The position numbers and the translations under genes are program-made. A stretch of 17,123 bases of DNA from the UHGV virus genome UHGV-0227332; one strand, 5' to 3'. Within the stretch, counting starts at the first letter, position 1. Every line of letters starts with the position of its first letter. The notes under the pieces were generated by a model. The model saw only the letters and a program-made list of their open reading frames with translations. It did not search any database and was not told the DNA's origin. Below are positions 4,672 to 11,168 of the stretch, one piece after another. The DNA is from a virus.

Positions 4672-6552
4672 TTAATACTCCGTCACGTTTTCCTGTCGCC
4701 ACGCCTCGTCATATTCCGATTTCGGCATATTGGCGATGTAGCTATATGGCGATCCTGATTCAAGTTGCAGGAACTGGTGCGATTGCTCGTCAAGGAACAA
4801 CGGGACGCCACCTTCCCAACCTTCGCCGTTACGTTGTTTTTCAAGCATCAAAACAGATGCCGGAGATGCCAGTAGCTGTTCGTCCTTCTCTGACATCTTT
4901 TCACCACTCTGAACTCTCTGTAACGCTCTCTCGCGAGCCTTGTTACGCCAGATGATGAAAAGGTTGTCTGTCAGGTCTGTTATCGCTCCAGAGCCTTTTA
5001 CGTCCATTTTCCCGGTTGGTTTTTCTTCGCTGTCTCCTTTTCGCGAGTGAGTAACGAGAATGACGTGGGAGTTTGTTTTGTTTTTGAAGTCGCAAATCGA
5101 GTCAACAAACGCCTTCTGCCCGTTATAGTCATCGTCGCCTATGCCACATTTCATCAGGCTGTCGATGATGAATAACTGGATACCGTATCGGCGGCGAGCG
5201 TAGTCGAATATTTCGATCAGCCTGTCGGCTTTCGCCGTTCCGGTCAGGCCAAACACCCAAAGTCTTTCGTCATAAAATTTAAATGCAGAGTCAATTTCCA
5301 GCACTGGCGGCATCTTGCAGCACGTCGCCTGACGGGTAAGGCGCTTAAGGAGAATACCAGGCTTCAGCTCAAGTGACGCGATGCACGTCTTCACACCCTG
5401 ACGCATTGCCTCAAGTGCCATATGCCCGACAACCTCCGTTTTTCCGTGACCGTTCACACCATTGACCAGCGTCAACTCTGCCTCACGGAACTGGAATTTA
5501 TCTGCCAGAGATTCCCACGGTGGATTAAACAGATACTGCTGCTTGCCGTAGAAAGCGTTGATAGTGTCCTGGTAAAACTCTCGCGCGCTGTAGAGTTCTT
5601 CAGGATCGAAGTAGGATGCCGTGCCGATGTACTGCCAGATTTCATCCTCGGTAACACCGTTCATCAGGCATTCGTTGATGTCTTTGTACGGCAGAGTAAC
5701 AAGACGGCAACGATGTTCACCGAGTCGGCTTGCGATTTCCCTTGCGGCTTCACGACCAACATCATCAACATCCATCGAGATGAATATTTCCTCAAACCTG
5801 TCGAGGTTGTGATACTCAAACTCAATCCACTGTTGCTTAGCGCCTTTCCCGCCACCAAACGGCACGGATAACGCCGAGATGCCGTATTGCGCATAGCTCA
5901 TACAATCAATTTCGCCTTCGCAAAGTACAACCGCCCTCACGCCAGCGTCCAGAGCCTGCCATCCGAACAGACAAGGTTCGCAATCACCTTCTGCCATAAT
6001 GACTTTCTTCCCGTCCGGGCGCTCAGTGCTGATTCGCTTTACCTGCAACAACTCACCATCGCGTTTGTACGGAATCACCAGAGCATCCAGTTCTCGCTCT
6101 CCATTCCACACCTTGCCGCTGACAACCTCGTAGCGCTTTACGATTTCTGGCGATATGCCACGCGATTGCAGGTACTCAAGATGGGATTCTGTTCTGGTAA
6201 CGTAGCGGGAGATTTTCTTGCGGTCAGGTCTGGAGAATTTCTTCTCACGTTTGGCATCGAAATGGTGATCGTCATCCTTGATTCCGAGAAAGGCTTTCGC
6301 TTCCTGCATAGCCTGATGCAGGTTAATTCCACGACATGCCATCCACAAATCAAGCATGTCACCGCCGTCTCCCTCAGCGAAATCAGCCCATTTTTTCTTG
6401 CCGCTAAGGTTGACCTTAAGGCTGTTTCCCTTGTCACCGTTGACGTTACCGGCAACCCACTCATGCCCCTCTTTCTTGCCGTTTGGCAACAGGTGCGGAG
6501 CCACCCTGTCAACCTGCGCCCAAAGCAGGTCACTGAGTTCACTTGGCGTCAT
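4672..6552 (-). CDS. Bifunctional DNA primase / replicative helicase (TOPRIM plus DnaB-like RecA-fold), 626 aa
   Basis: TOPRIM-like motifs (VLCEGEIDCMS; ISMDVDD). Walker A GVNGHGKT and Walker B-like LFIIDSL in the C-terminal half. Sits where lambda P would be, downstream of the initiator. Confidence 0.9.
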   Translation of the reverse strand: MTPSELSDLLWAQVDRVAPHLLPNGKKEGHEWVAGNVNGDKGNSLKVNLSGKKKWADFAEGDGGDMLDLWMACRGINLHQAMQEAKAFLGIKDDDHHFDAKREKKFSRPDRKKISRYVTRTESHLEYLQSRGISPEIVKRYEVVSGKVWNGERELDALVIPYKRDGELLQVKRISTERPDGKKVIMAEGDCEPCLFGWQALDAGVRAVVLCEGEIDCMSYAQYGISALSVPFGGGKGAKQQWIEFEYHNLDRFEEIFISMDVDDVGREAAREIASRLGEHRCRLVTLPYKDINECLMNGVTEDEIWQYIGTASYFDPEELYSAREFYQDTINAFYGKQQYLFNPPWESLADKFQFREAELTLVNGVNGHGKTEVVGHMALEAMRQGVKTCIASLELKPGILLKRLTRQATCCKMPPVLEIDSAFKFYDERLWVFGLTGTAKADRLIEIFDYARRRYGIQLFIIDSLMKCGIGDDDYNGQKAFVDSICDFKNKTNSHVILVTHSRKGDSEEKPTGKMDVKGSGAITDLTDNLFIIWRNKARERALQRVQSGEKMSEKDEQLLASPASVLMLEKQRNGEGWEGGVPLFLDEQSHQFLQLESGSPYSYIANMPKSEYDEAWRQENVTEY

Positions 6553-6656
6553 GATTCCCTCAGATTGAGATTTTTAAACCAGAAATCGACAAACGAAATA
6601 CTTAACCAGCCGTGGTTATAACCAGCGACCAGTAGCGATTTGATTTTTGATTTCAT
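6549..6656 (-). CDS. Possible 35-aa coupling ORF between initiator and primase-helicase
   Basis: ATG 3 nt after the initiator stop, with a GGTGA-like RBS. Its TGA overlaps the primase-helicase ATG (ATGA). Very short, so a weak call. Confidence 0.25.
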   Translation of the reverse strand: MKSKIKSLLVAGYNHGWLSISFVDFWFKNLNLRES

Positions 6657-6659
6657 GGT

Positions 6660-7520
6660 TCACCTGTCGAAAAACACGTAGCCAGTTTTCGATACGGTGA
6701 TTGCGGATGATGGTTTGGATTGTGGTTGAATAGTTTCTGGCTTCTCGTCGTTCCAGCGCTGACCGTTCAGGTAGCTCGATGGTAACAACCTGTCGAATCC
6801 GAACTGCTTACCATTCCTGCATGCGATGTCTTCTGCCAGCATCGTGGCAAACTCGCTTGCCGTACCCCTGGTAGTTTTACGCCATTCCCTGAACTGTGTT
6901 CTGAATGCCGAAGCTGCGTTTTTCTTCCCGGCCTTCCGCATGCCTGCACACCAGAATATTTCCTCGAATGCCTTGTCGGTTTCTTCGTGACGGTCAGGTG
7001 ATTTTTCACACTCCGTCCGAACACTTTCGGACATAGTGTTTTTATTATTTCTTTTTTCTTTTGTAATAGTTTCTTTTGTGTGTCCCTGTTTTGGTGACAG
7101 CGCTGTCACCGTTTTGGTGACACTTTTTGTCACCAATGCAGTGACATTATCACCAGAGTAGTGACACCCTTCGATTTGCCATTCCTCGATGTTCTTGTTA
7201 GGCCCGATTTGCTGGCCTTCGCGAAGGATAACCTTCATCGCGATAAGCTCATTCTTGGCCTTGTTTACCTTCTGTCTTGGCAGCCTGGTAATTTGAGCTA
7301 ACTGACTATCAGAGATGCGATCCATCTTTTTACCGTAGCCGTATGTTTTACGGCATATGGCGTGGGCAACCTTGCTCTGATTTTTCGTTAAATCTGCGCC
7401 GATAAGCTCTTCATACAGGGCATTTGCAAGACGGGTATAACCATCTTCAACTTCTGCCACACGACGCTCCACAGGCCGTTGTGAAGGCCTTAAATGTGTT
7501 ACGGTTGCAAGATTACTCAT
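6660..7520 (-). CDS. Replication initiator with lambda O-like N-terminal DNA-binding domain, 286 aa
   Basis: N-terminal [65 protein letters not shown] resembles the lambda O N-terminal domain. Iterons lie inside the gene. The C-terminal half is unlike lambda O. Confidence 0.85.
7033..7170. repeat. Origin-like element: AT-rich tract (7033-7080) next to four GGTGACA-type iterons (7093-7169)
   Basis: Perfect 18-bp palindrome GGTGACAGCGCTGTCACC (7093-7110), GGTGACACTTTTTGTCACC (7116-7134), and GTGACA repeats near 7141 and 7162, at roughly 20-23 bp spacing. The AT-rich block follows. Same architecture as ori-lambda inside O. Confidence 0.65.
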
Positions 7521-7659
7521 GACCTTTCTCCTTCTGCATCAGCTTCACTTTTTCCAACTCAGCCCGGAATCGACCAGGCTGCTTGAAGCTGGACAGGAAG
7601 CGATCACGTAGTATGTGTTTGTGAATTTTGTCCTGGTAAGGACTGAGTTGTTTTGTCAT
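7513..7659 (-). CDS. Small basic protein, 48 aa, between cII and the initiator
   Basis: ATG at 7659 preceded by AGGAG with 5-nt spacing. Translation [21 protein letters not shown]...; its stop overlaps the initiator start by 8 nt. The start region looks like the lambda O translation initiation region. Confidence 0.45.
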
Positions 7660-7691
7660 AATTACTCCTGTGGATTGATCCAGTAATGACC

Positions 7692-7985
7692 TCAGAATTC
7701 CATCTGGATTTGTTCAGAACGCTCGGTTGCCGCCGGGCGTTTTTTATTGGTGAGAATCGAAGCAACTTGTCGTGCCAATCGAGCCATGTCGTCGTCAACG
7801 ACACCCCATTCAAGAACAGCAAGCAGCATTGAGAACTTTGGAATCCAATCCCTCTTCCACCTGCTGATCTGCGACTTATCAACTCCCACAGCTTCCGCTG
7901 TCTTCTCAGTTCCAAGCATTGCGATTTTGTTAAGCAACGCACTCTCGATTCTTAGAGCCTCGTTGCGTTTGTTTGCACGAACCAT
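7692..7985 (-). CDS. cII: CII transcriptional activator (lambda type), 97 aa
   Basis: [75 protein letters not shown] matches lambda CII from memory. Internal Met chosen over the ORF-track start at 8072. Confidence 0.95.
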
Positions 7986-8043
7986 ATGTAAGTATTTCCT
8001 TAACAAATAAGAAGTTATGCGCATCAACTTATGCGCGTTGTAT

Positions 8044-8087
8044 TCCCGCATTTCGGCGGGAATGAGGACCATGACTGTTAAAGAGCA
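8044..8087 (-). promoter_or_regulatory. nutR-like site: boxA plus boxB hairpin
   Basis: On the minus strand: boxA-like GCTCTTTAACA (8077-8087), then hairpin TCCCGC-CGAAAT-GCGGGA (8044-8061). The same hairpin recurs at the nutL position. Located between cro and cII as in lambda. Confidence 0.55.
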
Positions 8088-8093
8088 ATTTGC

Positions 8094-8279
8094 TTATGCC
8101 GCTTTGCGGTAAGCGCTTTCTTGATACTTCAGGGCGCCAGCTGTAACGACTTCCAGTCGATAGGCGTCTTTCTCTGGGATGACTTCCTTCCACTGAGAGA
8201 CTGCTGCGTCGCTAATGCCTAACGCTTTAGCTACAGCACGCTGGGTTCCGAAGTGGTCGATAACATCTTTCTTGTACAT
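8094..8279 (-). CDS. cro: Cro repressor (P22 Cro type), 61 aa
   Basis: MYKKDVIDHFGTQRAVAKALGISDAAVSQWKEVIPEKDAYRLE... is near-identical to P22 Cro as I remember it. GGAG RBS; divergent from the repressor gene. Confidence 0.9.
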   Translation of the reverse strand: MYKKDVIDHFGTQRAVAKALGISDAAVSQWKEVIPEKDAYRLEVVTAGALKYQESAYRKAA

Positions 8280-8359
8280 AGACTCGCTCCGAAATTAAAG
8301 AACACTTAAATTATCCACTAAAGGAATCTTAAGTCAAGTTTATTTAAGATGTCTTAACT
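8280..8359. promoter_or_regulatory. OR region: divergent PR/PRM promoters with P22-type operators
   Basis: 18-bp operator-like near-palindromes ATTAAAGAACACTTAAAT (8294-8311) and ATTTAAGATGTCTTAACT (8342-8359). Minus-strand PR candidate: -35 TTGACT (8332-8337) and -10 GATAAT (8310-8315). Confidence 0.7.
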
Positions 8360-9010
8360 ATGAAAACTCAATTGATGGGAGAGCGCATTCGCGCTCGGAG
8401 AAAAGAACTCAAGATCAGGCAGGCCGCACTTGGAAAGATGGTCGGCGTGTCTAATGTTGCCATATCTCAGTGGGAACGCTCTGAGACAGAGCCAAATGGA
8501 GAGAATCTTCTCGCCCTGGCTAATGCGTTGAAGTGTTCCCCTGACTATCTGATGAAAGGAGAGGAAAGTCTTTCAAACATTGCCTATCACAGTAGGCATG
8601 ATCCAAGAGGGTCATACCCTCTGATTAGCTGGGTGAGCGCAGGATGCTGGATGGAAGCTGTAGAACCATATCATAAGCGTGCAATAGATAACTGGTACGA
8701 TACAACCGTAGACTGTTCAGAAGATTCGTTTTGGTTGGACGTGAAGGGAGACTCAATGACGGCTCCGGCCGGTCTCAGTATCCCTGAAGGAATGATAATA
8801 CTCGTCGATCCTGAAGTAGAGCCGCGTAACGGGAAACTGGTAGTTGCAAAGCTCGAAGGAGAAAACGAGGCAACTTTCAAGAAGTTAGTTATTGATGCAG
8901 GCAGGAAGTTTCTAAAACCACTTAACCCACAATATCCGATGATCGAGATCAACGGAAACTGCAAAATCATCGGCGTAGTTGTCGATGCAAAACTAGCAAA
9001 CCTTCCATAA
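8360..9010 (+). CDS. c2: Prophage repressor, P22 C2-like (lambda CI analogue), 216 aa
   Basis: HTH N-terminal domain (QAALGKMVGVSNVAISQWERSE) and S24 peptidase-like C-terminal domain. Highly similar to P22 C2 from memory, same length. Confidence 0.95.
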   Translation: MKTQLMGERIRARRKELKIRQAALGKMVGVSNVAISQWERSETEPNGENLLALANALKCSPDYLMKGEESLSNIAYHSRHDPRGSYPLISWVSAGCWMEAVEPYHKRAIDNWYDTTVDCSEDSFWLDVKGDSMTAPAGLSIPEGMIILVDPEVEPRNGKLVVAKLEGENEATFKKLVIDAGRKFLKPLNPQYPMIEINGNCKIIGVVVDAKLANLP

Positions 9011-9324: not shown

Positions 9325-9630
9325 ATGGCAGTAGTCATTACATATCTGGCTGACGATAACGCCAGAAATCGCCGCAGAGCACGCAGACAGGCTCAACGTG
9401 AACAGGCAATGCAAGAACAGCGACTGGCACGAAAAATTGCGCTAAAGCTCTCTGGTTGCGTCAGGGCAGATAAAGCAGCATCACTCGGAAGCCTTCGCTG
9501 CAAGAAGGCAGAAGAAGTCGAGCGTAAACAGAACCGTATTTACTACCGCAAGCCACGCAGTGAAATGGGTGTGACTTGTTCAGGCCGCCAGAAGCAACGC
9601 GGAAAATCAATTCCAGCTTATTACGATTGA
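9325..9630 (+). CDS. N: N-like transcription antiterminator, 101 aa
   Basis: First gene after PL/nutL. N-terminal arginine-rich motif NARNRRRARRQAQREQ. C-terminus GVTCSGRQKQRGKSIPAYY resembles the lambda N C-terminus. GGAGG RBS. Confidence 0.75.
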   Translation: MAVVITYLADDNARNRRRARRQAQREQAMQEQRLARKIALKLSGCVRADKAASLGSLRCKKAEEVERKQNRIYYRKPRSEMGVTCSGRQKQRGKSIPAYYD

Positions 9631-9638
9631 GGTGAGCC

Positions 9639-9776
9639 ATGCTCAAGAAAGTCAAACGCCGACTTTACAAAGAAGGTAGATATTCATGCCAGTTGCCAAA
9701 ATGCGACACAACAAAATGGAGTGTCGATGATTGGTGTAACTGGATAGATAGATACGGAACTTGGTGGGATAAATAA
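9639..9776 (+). CDS. Possible small Cys/Trp-rich protein, 45 aa
   Basis: ATG 5 nt after a GGTGA RBS, starting 9 nt after the N stop. Translation MLKKVKRRLYKEGRYSCQLPKCDTTKWSVDDWCNWIDRYGTWWDK. Short, so uncertain. Confidence 0.3.
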   Translation: MLKKVKRRLYKEGRYSCQLPKCDTTKWSVDDWCNWIDRYGTWWDK

Positions 9777-10067: not shown

Positions 10068-10160
10068 GCACCTATAGCAGATTTGCGAGTCTGCTATGTG
10101 AGCAATGTCGCTCGTAACTAAACAGGAGCCGACTTGTTCTGATTATTGGAAATCTTCTTT

Positions 10161-10187
10161 GCCCTCCAGTGTGAGGGCAATTTTTTT
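10161..10187 (+). terminator. Intrinsic terminator inside the PL operon (tL1-like)
   Basis: GCCCTC-CAGTGT-GAGGGC hairpin followed by AATTTTTTT, immediately upstream of the RBS of the next gene. Confidence 0.55.
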
Positions 10188-10199
10188 GACGGAGGATAT

Positions 10200-11168
10200 A
10201 TGAGTGAAGTAACAGATTTAGTTGTTATTGAAAAAGCAAATGCAATGACTGTATTTCAGTCTGCCGACCAGATTGAAGAAATCCTTCAAAAGGTTGAACG
10301 TGAAGTTATGTCCTTTGTGCCTGATATCACAACGGCAAAGGGCAGAAAGGAGATCGCTTCTCTGGCGTATAAAGTTGCGCAGACGAAAACATATCTCGAT
10401 GGTCTTGGAAAAGACCTTGTTGCTGAACTGAAGGAAATTCCAAAGCTAATTGATGCCAACCGCAAGACAGTGCGTGATCGCCTTGATGAGCTGAAATCCA
10501 AGGCACGCCAGCCTCTTACTGATTATGAGGAGGAACAGGCACGGATTAAAGCCGAAGAAGAAGCTAAGGCAGCAGCTGAAGCTCTCGCAAAGCAAATTGA
10601 GTCTGACCATGAAATAGCTATTTTGATGGATCGCGAATTTGACCGCCAAAGAGAAGAGGCAAGACTCAAAGCGGAGCAGGAAAAGCGAGAGCATGAAGAA
10701 CGCTTAAAAAGAGAAGCTGAAGAGAAAGCCAGAGCAGAAGCCGAAGCAAAGGCAAAAGCCGAAATTGAAGCAGCAGCAAGGCGAGAAGCAGAAGCTAAGG
10801 CCGCAGCGGAACGTGCAGAGCGTGAACGCATTGAAGCCGAGCAACGAGCACAGCGCGAAGCAAAAGAGGCAGCAGAACGAGCTGAAAGAGAAAAGCAGGC
10901 GGCAATTGAAGCAGAACGCCGAAAAGCACAGGAGGAGGATGAACGAATCCGGCGCGAGGCTGAAGCAAAAGAGCAAGCCAGAATAGCAGAAGAAAAAAGA
11001 ATCAAGGACGAAGAAGAGCGTAGAGCAAAGGATAAAGCTCACCGGAAAGAAGTAAATAACAAAATACTTGCTGACCTTATCAAGGTTGGCGCATCAGAAG
11101 ATGTTGCTAAAAATATCATAACAGCCATCGTAAAAGGCAAAGTATTCGCAACAAAAATAACCTACTAA
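10200..11168 (+). CDS. Hypothetical protein with long Glu/Ala/Lys/Arg-rich coiled-coil region, 322 aa
   Basis: ATG 5 nt after GGAGG. A globular N-terminal segment of about 110 aa, then roughly 170 aa of EAKA/ERAE-type heptad-like repeats, then a short hydrophobic C-terminus. The ORF-track start at 10146 lies inside the terminator. Confidence 0.7.
   Translation: MSEVTDLVVIEKANAMTVFQSADQIEEILQKVEREVMSFVPDITTAKGRKEIASLAYKVAQTKTYLDGLGKDLVAELKEIPKLIDANRKTVRDRLDELKSKARQPLTDYEEEQARIKAEEEAKAAAEALAKQIESDHEIAILMDREFDRQREEARLKAEQEKREHEERLKREAEEKARAEAEAKAKAEIEAAARREAEAKAAAERAERERIEAEQRAQREAKEAAERAEREKQAAIEAERRKAQEEDERIRREAEAKEQARIAEEKRIKDEEERRAKDKAHRKEVNNKILADLIKVGASEDVAKNIITAIVKGKVFATKITY

Follow-up and report, generated by a model that had tools for sequence, protein, structure and literature searches.

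orf48, a small conserved gene between cII and the replication initiator gene in a lambdoid virus genome

The stretch of DNA analyzed here (UHGV virus genome UHGV-0227332, 17,123 nucleotides, henceforth the window) resembles phage lambda through cII and up to the site at which translation of the replication gene O begins. In lambda that site opens directly onto O; in the window it opens onto a frame of 48 codons, the end of which overlaps the start of a replication initiator gene. What is this frame, and why does it stand at this position? A previous reading of the same DNA, made from the letters alone (the sequence-only reading), considered it new and offered two explanations: a scar left by recombination, or a small coupled regulator, or a leader peptide, of the replication genes.

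orf48 and the end of lambda homology

The frame occupies positions 7513–7659 of the minus strand (a detail that the sequence-only reading left unstated), with its ATG beginning at 7659 and its TAA ending at 7513. It encodes, as had been described, a Lys/His/Arg-rich peptide of 48 residues: there are 8 lysines, 4 arginines and 3 histidines, the pI is 10.1 and the net charge about +6. The description of the frame as new did not hold. The peptide matches Pfam family PF10872 (DUF2740) with E=8.9e-29 and 99.4 bits against a cutoff of 27 bits, residues 6–48 aligning to the whole of the profile (1–43 of 43), and PHROG 1913 with E=2.7e-28. Searches with tblastn found a homologue in 127 phage records. 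The identity is 100% at the amino acid level to orf48 of HK022, to hkaW of HK620 (the name given to orf48 in the GenBank annotation of HK620 and HK630) and to the copies in HK630, mEp043, mEp235, VT2-Sakai (H0097), Stx2 II and Stx2-phage 86; it is 85% for P22 and its relatives and 58% for Erwinia phage Midgardsormr38. The GenBank record of HK022 (U02466) already labels the gene ‘orf48 gene product; sequence well conserved in phage P22’, and the P22 records (BK000583/X78401) place it between c1/oop and gene 18. Copies are present on 380 IMG/VR contigs and in 400 of 5,426 complete E. coli genomes (∼7%; PGAP label ‘DUF2740 family protein’), Shiga-toxin phages included.

Position agrees with this assignment, which rests on the open reading frame listing, Pfam and the homologues. 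The order cII (7692–7985), orf48 (7513–7659) and initiator (6660–7520), all on the minus strand, fits the place of the family in the early-right operon of lambdoid phages, and the same order – a gene on the cII/c1 side, orf48, initiator – recurs in P22, HK022, HK630, 720R6 and Midgardsormr38. In length, position, ribosome-binding site and ATGAGTAA overlap the window's copy equals P22 orf48, HK022 orf48 and HK620 hkaW, from which it differs in nothing substantive. We are thus highly confident that 7513–7659 is the known, conserved orf48/DUF2740 gene cassette of lambdoid phages. GenBank and the literature already record the gene, the lack of it in lambda and the precise mosaic boundary: Hayes et al. 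2012 (PMC3349717) noted that lambda naturally lacks orf48 and described the same point of lambda divergence (lambda 38694). The label ‘tail protein’, widespread for the DUF2740 family in RefSeq and in annotation derived from PHROG, is almost certainly an error that should be corrected.

The surrounding genes are those of a lambdoid early region, here displayed antisense to the conventional lambda map. Upstream of orf48 lies a lambda-type cII of 97 amino acids (7692–7985, minus; Pfam Phage_CII E=1.7e-48; ∼97% DNA identity to lambda), the 3′-end of which overlaps oop, and before it a P22-type cro (8094–8279, minus) and, on the plus strand, a P22-type c2 repressor (8360–9010). Downstream are the initiator (6660–7520, minus; Phage_rep_O E=1.2e-37, TIGR01610) and a Toprim/DnaB-like primase-helicase of 626 amino acids (4672–6552, minus). 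The sequence-only reading had called the initiator non-lambda, and this is correct for one part of it: the protein departs from lambda in its C-terminal part, as does its partner primase/helicase, whereas the N-terminal 157 amino acids form a lambda-O-type domain with 49% identity to lambda O, beginning at residue 1 (MSNLATV versus MTNTAKI). A repeat search found four ∼19-nt iterons (TGTCACC...GGTGACA) at 7081–7166, within the initiator gene; next to an AT-rich tract (7040–7080), they are probably the origin of replication, comparable to ori-lambda inside O.

Where lambda homology ends was determined by ungapped alignment anchored on the ATG of orf48. From −330 to +8, a stretch that spans cII, the spacer, AGGAG and ATGACAAA, 328 of 338 positions are identical (97%); from +9 to +200 the count falls to 47 of 192, the value expected of random sequence. 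Identity to lambda through cII and the O-type ribosome-binding region, and its loss within the first codons, is therefore just as had been proposed. The last base in common is 7652, the final A of ATGACAAA, and the first mismatch is 7651 (lambda 38694). On lambda's side, the likeness of ∼97% takes in cII, oop, a LexA-like box, the Shine-Dalgarno sequence, the −10 of the oop promoter (pO) and ATGACAAA.

The end of homology need not be the site of exchange. Between cII stop and ATGACAAA (7652–7691) lies a block common to lambdoid phages, defined by the lambda and HK022 alignments and by Hayes et al. 2012 (PMC3349717), which contains the spacer, the LexA-like box, the Shine-Dalgarno sequence, the start of oop and the oop −10, and which serves as the upstream recombination joint. 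Hayes et al. aligned this conserved block across 23 lambdoid phages by means of a 33-nt sequence, first noted (as ‘sequence 5’) by Clark et al. 2001 according to the citation in PMC3349717. The window departs from lambda at three spacer sites (−17, −13 and −4) and at each carries the HK022-type base; indeed, it equals HK022 without a difference from the spacer through the orf48 stop, the two diverging directly after ATGAGTAA. In the window's lineage the crossover was thus probably 5′ of the ATG, within the shared block, rather than in the first codons. Moreover, where the 3′-end of cII is of lambda type, the three spacer polymorphisms occur as four haplotypes in front of orf48, which indicates that crossovers are scattered over the ∼45-nt shared block. 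Codon 3, then, marks the end of lambda homology, but not necessarily – on this evidence from the alignments – the place at which strands were exchanged.

Relative to lambda, orf48 corresponds to a 139-nt indel between imperfect 8-nt repeats, ATGACAAA and ATGAGTAA. A deletion between the two would leave just what lambda has, ATGACAAAT; loss in lambda and gain elsewhere both fit the indel data. With these 139 nt missing, lambda O is translated directly from the ribosome-binding site that in the window serves orf48.

Selection and exchange of the cassette

Eight DNA versions of orf48 were compared, those of E. coli, Salmonella/P22, Enterobacter, Citrobacter, Atlantibacter, Pseudescherichia, Candidatus Erwinia dacicola and an Erwinia phage. 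The frame is open in all eight, even at dS above 1, and homologues down to 58–67% identity retain it. Values of dN/dS (Nei-Gojobori), obtained from a gene of 144 nt in just 8 distinct versions, range from 0.07 to 0.54 across all informative pairs, and from 0.07 to 0.48 for central codons 5–41, which are free of known signals. Among 23 cluster representatives 15 residues are invariant, and most of these are central (H13, K14, I16, D19, R20, L22, G29, R30, F31, E34, E36 and K39). The pattern of substitution shows orf48 to be under purifying selection as a coding sequence. The family is nonetheless narrow: its 54 clusters at 90% identity all come from Enterobacterales and their phages, and an exhaustive profile search returned 17 representatives among 1.84 billion at the 50% identity level, from the same group of hosts and phages and all of them close relatives or fragments.

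The gene also behaves as a unit of exchange. In a set of 93 orf48 loci the 147-nt sequence is identical in 79, yet it is accompanied by at least three types of cII upstream and by two unrelated initiator families downstream (Phage_rep_O type at 52 loci, HK022-O type at 35), with all six major combinations found. Identical DNA in such varied company marks orf48 as a self-contained cassette, joined to its neighbors at both ends. On the upstream side the differing 3′-ends of cII run into a common sequence, ACTGGATC(A/T)ATC(C/A)ACAGGAGT(A/C)ATTATGACAAAA; downstream, GGTCATGAGTAA is present at 92 of the 93 loci, with flanks that diverge at the very next base, and the partner initiators of the set all begin MSN. 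Since both ends lie in short sequences common to otherwise unrelated neighbors, homologous recombination shuffles the cassette among phages. The window, compared with P22, HK022 and HK620, represents one of at least six arrangements of flanks: a lambda-type cII stands on one side of the cassette, and on the other a Phage_rep_O-type initiator with primase/helicase after it.

These data dispose of the first explanation offered by the sequence-only reading, a functionless chance frame that arose as a lambda-type cII/oop segment became linked to replication genes of foreign origin: although lambda homology ends 8 nt into the frame, in a region known to be a mosaic joint, the same frame recurs with different flanks in hundreds of phages and prophages, has the joints at its two ends and none inside, constitutes a curated Pfam family and remains open in divergent hosts with dN/dS well below 1, so that a scar or fortuitous frame is excluded for practical purposes. 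The observations that bear on that proposal are themselves sound: lambda identity is present at the start region, and the frame is conserved in related phages and prophages.

What occupies the position after the shared block in other phages was established by scanning IMG/VR for the block alone and sorting at least 120 contigs by what follows the ATG. Among the 120 contigs listed, ∼45 proceed directly to the initiator in the style of lambda (MTNTAK...), 27 carry orf48, 3 carry another long frame, and ∼45 carry a different open reading frame of 53 amino acids (MTKRRKKYQEKEEIRHPDSPEGLVVAAANNRAFAERLVGVYRLAKAGVKHGRR), which is the ‘orf54/gp53-type’ alternative mentioned in Hayes et al. 2012 (PMC3349717). 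This frame, of HK97 type, is built as orf48 is: it uses the same ATG, with a shared ribosome-binding site and ATGACAAAA start, has TACCAGGA over the −35 zone of pO, and contains the initiator Shine-Dalgarno sequence internally. It differs from orf48 in that the peptide is unrelated past residue ∼10 and the overlap with the initiator ATG is 14 nt rather than 8 nt. Homology between the two was considered and rejected (hhalign probability 0.6%), the likeness being confined to the first ∼10 codons, which overlap the promoter; the 53-amino-acid frame has no Pfam match. That two unrelated peptides should share one layout suggests selection for the layout itself, an upstream frame with coupling to the initiator.

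Signals at the two ends of orf48 and folding of the mRNA

Both ends of orf48 physically overlap elements that belong to something else: pO at one end, the initiator's translation signals at the other. At the 5′-end, a Shine-Dalgarno sequence AGGAG (7665–7669, minus) precedes the ATG by 5 nt, and the alignments to lambda and HK022 bear out the proposal that this site and start are the ones that serve O in lambda. On the opposite strand the first ∼10 codons of orf48 hold the oop promoter, both its extended −10 and its −35 zone. The extended −10, TGT-CATAAT (7654–7662, plus), is the complement of codons 1–2 and of the ATT before the ATG; CATAAT itself (7657–7662) complements ATTATG, and TGT (7654–7656) supplies the extension. 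Mutation of the corresponding lambda −10 (ATTAT at 38684–38688) inactivates pO (Hayes et al., PMC3349717). Across homologues the first base of codon 2 may be A, C, G or T, while the CA that complements TG is retained. A putative −35, TGGTAA (7634–7639, plus), lies across a 17-nt spacer and is complementary to codons 7–9; it is proposed from the sequence and from the GenBank record of P22, in which the oop promoter is annotated over orf48 nt −3 to +26. TGGTAA is a weak match to consensus (3/6), and a strict promoter scan did not pick up the site; Hayes et al. 2012 (PMC3349717) describe the P22-type pO −35 as distinct from that of lambda, which we find in O codons 7–9.

The promoter would direct the oop antisense RNA (7670–7749, plus), placed by a terminator scan and by near-identity to lambda, with its start inferred from lambda 38675 and a terminator stem at 7716–7743 followed by a T-run. 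OOP RNA has been detected and mapped experimentally in phage BTP1 (PMC7067206), which is among the phages that match orf48 by tblastn. A putative LexA-box-like palindrome, CTGTGGATTGATCCAG, is located at the start of oop (7668–7683, plus); a LexA site inside oop-pO of lambda is cited in PMC5869508. Rfam returned no family match anywhere in the window, oop included.

At the 3′-end, the stop of orf48 overlaps the initiator start by 8 nt, as had been noticed from the sequence: in ATGAGTAA (7513–7520, minus), the downstream recombination joint, the TAA falls within the initiator's ATG AGT AAT. Codons 47–48 and the stop thus contain the initiator ATG, and 6 nt before it is the initiator Shine-Dalgarno sequence AAGGAG (7528–7533, minus), encoded by orf48 codons 43–44 (AAG GAG, K-E) in a junction that is conserved in homologues. 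The last six codons (K-E-K-G-H-E) accordingly carry both Shine-Dalgarno sequence and AUG. The two ends of orf48 are therefore frozen for different reasons: the 5′-end because the oop promoter occupies the other strand, the 3′-end because the translation signal of the initiator is located there.

Could orf48 be conserved chiefly as regulatory DNA or RNA of the opposite strand (the oop promoter and elements upstream of it), with the open frame a by-product? The first ~10 codons do coincide with the extended −10 and −35 zone, the similarity between orf48 and the 53-amino-acid frame is limited to those same codons, and 79 of 93 loci are identical as DNA. However, pO requires only ∼35 nt, whereas conservation of frame and peptide extends across the full 144 nt; in divergent homologues it is synonymous changes that prevail; and lambda pO is functional with an entirely different −35, inside O (Hayes 2012, PMC3349717). 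We regard this explanation as improbable.

The 3′-end also figures in predictions of mRNA secondary structure. A long-range helix (7514–7613, minus) is predicted to pair orf48 codons 16–23 (7593–7613) with the initiator Shine-Dalgarno sequence and AUG (7514–7537), enclosing an apical hairpin at 7560–7581. The 221-nt mRNA has a minimum free energy of −64.5 kcal/mol (z=−3.6) and is more stable than 200 of 200 dinucleotide shuffles, and the same helix was predicted in separate folds of all eight divergent homologues. In five homologues the natural mRNA is also more stable than synonymous recodings in which peptide and ribosome-binding site were fixed (z from −1.3 to −3.7). Covariation in support of the predicted helix did not exceed that in shuffles, the AUG-masking helix never varying among homologues, and pairing over Shine-Dalgarno sequence and AUG in the window is close to that of synonymous recodings (12 versus ∼11 nt; 107 of 200 controls equal or exceed the natural sequence). 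Conservation of the helix is explicable by the R-D-R and G-H-E codons. An mRNA helix that would mask the ribosome-binding site and gate initiator translation thus stays a hypothesis, albeit a plausible one.

The folding data and the census together bring into focus the possibility that orf48 is purely a cis-acting leader: translation alone would matter, by delivering ribosomes or by unmasking the initiator's ribosome-binding site, and the peptide would be irrelevant. Two unrelated peptides in the same position, with one start and a like stop/start overlap, speak for such a leader, as do a predicted helix that masks both Shine-Dalgarno sequence and AUG and an mRNA more stable than its synonymous recodings. 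Yet purifying selection acts on central codons that carry no signal (dN/dS 0.07–0.48), the central residues are invariant (although constraint on the RNA could account for some of this), the helix lacks covariation and the pairing of the ribosome-binding site is not specific to codon choice. That the peptide counts for nothing is, we think, unlikely.

Candidate roles of orf48

If the peptide matters, what might it do? An AlphaFold2 model built from the 23-sequence alignment is a two-helix hairpin (helices 7–25 and 28–44; mean pLDDT 80.7). Foldseek found no match to this model in PDB or in the viral BFVD library, a 48-residue hairpin being too small to inform; a profile search of PDB sequences gave noise only (E>0.7), and neither NCBIfam nor PADLOC contained a match to the peptide. 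A shared ‘QPG’ directed attention to lambda CIII (PF02061), but homology was rejected: the hhalign probability is 1.2% over 11 columns, and there is no Lambda_CIII Pfam match at E≤1. Also set aside was ‘orf48:gnarl1’, an O-antigen-modifying accessory gene (PMC12373910); here the name is a library index, for an unrelated gene from lytic phages, and the orf48 peptide is absent from the supplements. Our searches of the literature found no published orf48 phenotype and no proteomic or ribosome-profiling data for it; no paper was found under ‘DUF2740’, and ‘hkaW’ gave name collisions only. That the peptide is made is indicated indirectly, by the strong Shine-Dalgarno sequence in common with lambda O and by dN/dS values below 1. 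Papers that handle P22 orf48 do so merely as part of cloned fragments.

An alternative of some weight is that the peptide is a small regulator acting in trans on the circuit of lysis-lysogeny or of replication (a protease inhibitor like CIII, say, or a hairpin that binds nucleic acid), coupling to the initiator being incidental. Purifying selection, the confidently predicted basic helical hairpin and a position beside cII and initiator in the early operon are all in keeping with it, and indifference to the type of initiator or cII partner suggests a host or generic target. Against it stand the absence of similarity to CIII, of any match to solved or predicted structures or to a defense family, and of a published phenotype among the papers found, together with the restriction of the family to enterobacterial lambdoids. 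On balance a trans role by itself is possible but somewhat unlikely.

The reading that we prefer, tentatively, combines coupling with an action in trans. Small and early in the rightward (pR) operon, orf48 is an optional cassette between the cII/oop block and the initiator gene. On this reading ribosomes would load at the strong lambda-O-type ribosome-binding site, translate orf48 and terminate on the initiator AUG; translational coupling would then sustain synthesis of the initiator, perhaps with the aid of unfolding of the helix between codons 16–23 and the initiator Shine-Dalgarno sequence and AUG. The basic two-helix peptide would probably also act in trans during early lytic development, given that the central codons are under purifying selection. 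In essence this is the second explanation of the sequence-only reading, coupling of a small gene or leader to those of replication, and it is plausible in that it fits the evidence. Two considerations temper it. The initiator has a good Shine-Dalgarno sequence of its own, and short overlaps of stop and start are routine in phage operons (4 nt for lambda O/P), so coupling may be incidental; and lambda, with many of its relatives, replicates without the small frame, which makes orf48 dispensable in principle.

Plasmids offer a comparison for the coupling part of the preferred reading. In the repA leaders of IncFII and IncB plasmids (tap/repBA) a short open reading frame ends at or over the initiator start, a structure masks the ribosome-binding site and an antisense RNA is encoded nearby. 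orf48 resembles these leaders in its overlap with the initiator start, in the predicted structure that masks the ribosome-binding site and in the proximity of an antisense RNA. It differs from them in that cII, rather than the leader, is the target of the antisense RNA (oop), in that the initiator has a strong Shine-Dalgarno sequence of its own, and in that neither a pseudoknot nor covariation was found.

A broader proposal is that orf48 is one of two unrelated, interchangeable frames upstream of the initiator: the start within the LexA-controlled oop block would gate the initiator through melting of the helix, and the peptide would add a role in trans. We consider this doubtful.

In themselves the identity of the gene and the boundary with lambda add little. 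The gene is, on the other hand, carried by ∼7% of complete E. coli genomes, among them Shiga-toxin phages, and the comparative data – selection on the coding sequence, behavior as a cassette, ends with dual use and an unrelated frame of the same layout – point to concrete and cheap experiments. If the reading of interchangeable gating frames is true, they would represent an undescribed layer of control over the initiation of lambdoid replication, one that lambda has lost.

An alternative occupant and a repeat within orf48

The slot between the shared oop/RBS block and the replication initiator gene can hold a 53-aa ORF (MTKRRKKYQEKEEIRH...KHGRR; 9586-9747, plus strand, after the block in the IMG/VR contig L096), which is unrelated to orf48, the 48-aa basic ORF at 7513-7659 on the minus strand of the window, and yet fills the same position. 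It occurs in ~45 loci among the matches listed (L096-L215, contigs matched by the shared block alone) and has no family in Pfam. The initiator SD is contained inside this ORF, and the overlap between the end of the ORF and the initiator ATG is 14 nt.

In orf48 itself, codons 27-34 carry a GC-rich inverted repeat, CAGCCTGG-TCGATT-CCGGGCTG (7560-7581, minus strand), conserved in seven of eight divergent homologues. This repeat adds to the predicted mRNA fold, which is unusually stable.

The initiator gene and the mosaic surroundings

Four ~19-nt iterons (TGTCACC...GGTGACA; 7081-7166) and an adjoining AT-rich tract (7040-7080) lie within the initiator gene. Together they are a probable internal replication origin, likened to the arrangement in lambda, where the origin is located inside the O gene. 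Between the initiator and the primase/helicase gene is a 35-aa ORF (MKSKIKSLLVAGYNHGWLSISFVDFWFKNLNLRES; 6549-6656, minus strand) that overlaps the primase/helicase start; the annotation of phage vB_EcoP-720R6 lists it as 'hypothetical'.

On the other side of orf48, a P22-type immunity module (8094-9010), comprising cro (8094-8279, minus strand) and c2 (8360-9010, plus strand), is joined to a lambda-type cII; there is therefore a second mosaic joint in the cro–cII (nutR/tR1) interval, at 7985-8094. Coverage of the 17-kb window by any one phage in the database is 54% at most. In the early-left region, a 340-aa ORF (10146-11168, plus strand) consists mostly of a repetitive Glu/Ala/Lys/Arg-rich segment resembling a coiled coil; it is labeled TolA-like in relatives.

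Database records of the orf48 family

Several database members of the family (DUF2740) are irregular: P0001 contains an internal duplication, P0036 and P0064 are frameshifted, and P0060 is fused to cII (152 aa). These irregularities suggest that the locus sometimes decays in prophages, or else suffers there from artefacts of assembly and annotation.

The family is named 'tail protein' in PHROG 1913, a label that has spread to many RefSeq phage records, including P22 (NC_002371), mEp043 (NC_019706), Sf101 (NC_027398), SEN22 (NC_028696) and Midgardsormr38 (NC_070949). Because orf48 sits in the early-right operon, with cII on one side and the replication initiator on the other, this label is almost certainly a mis-annotation.
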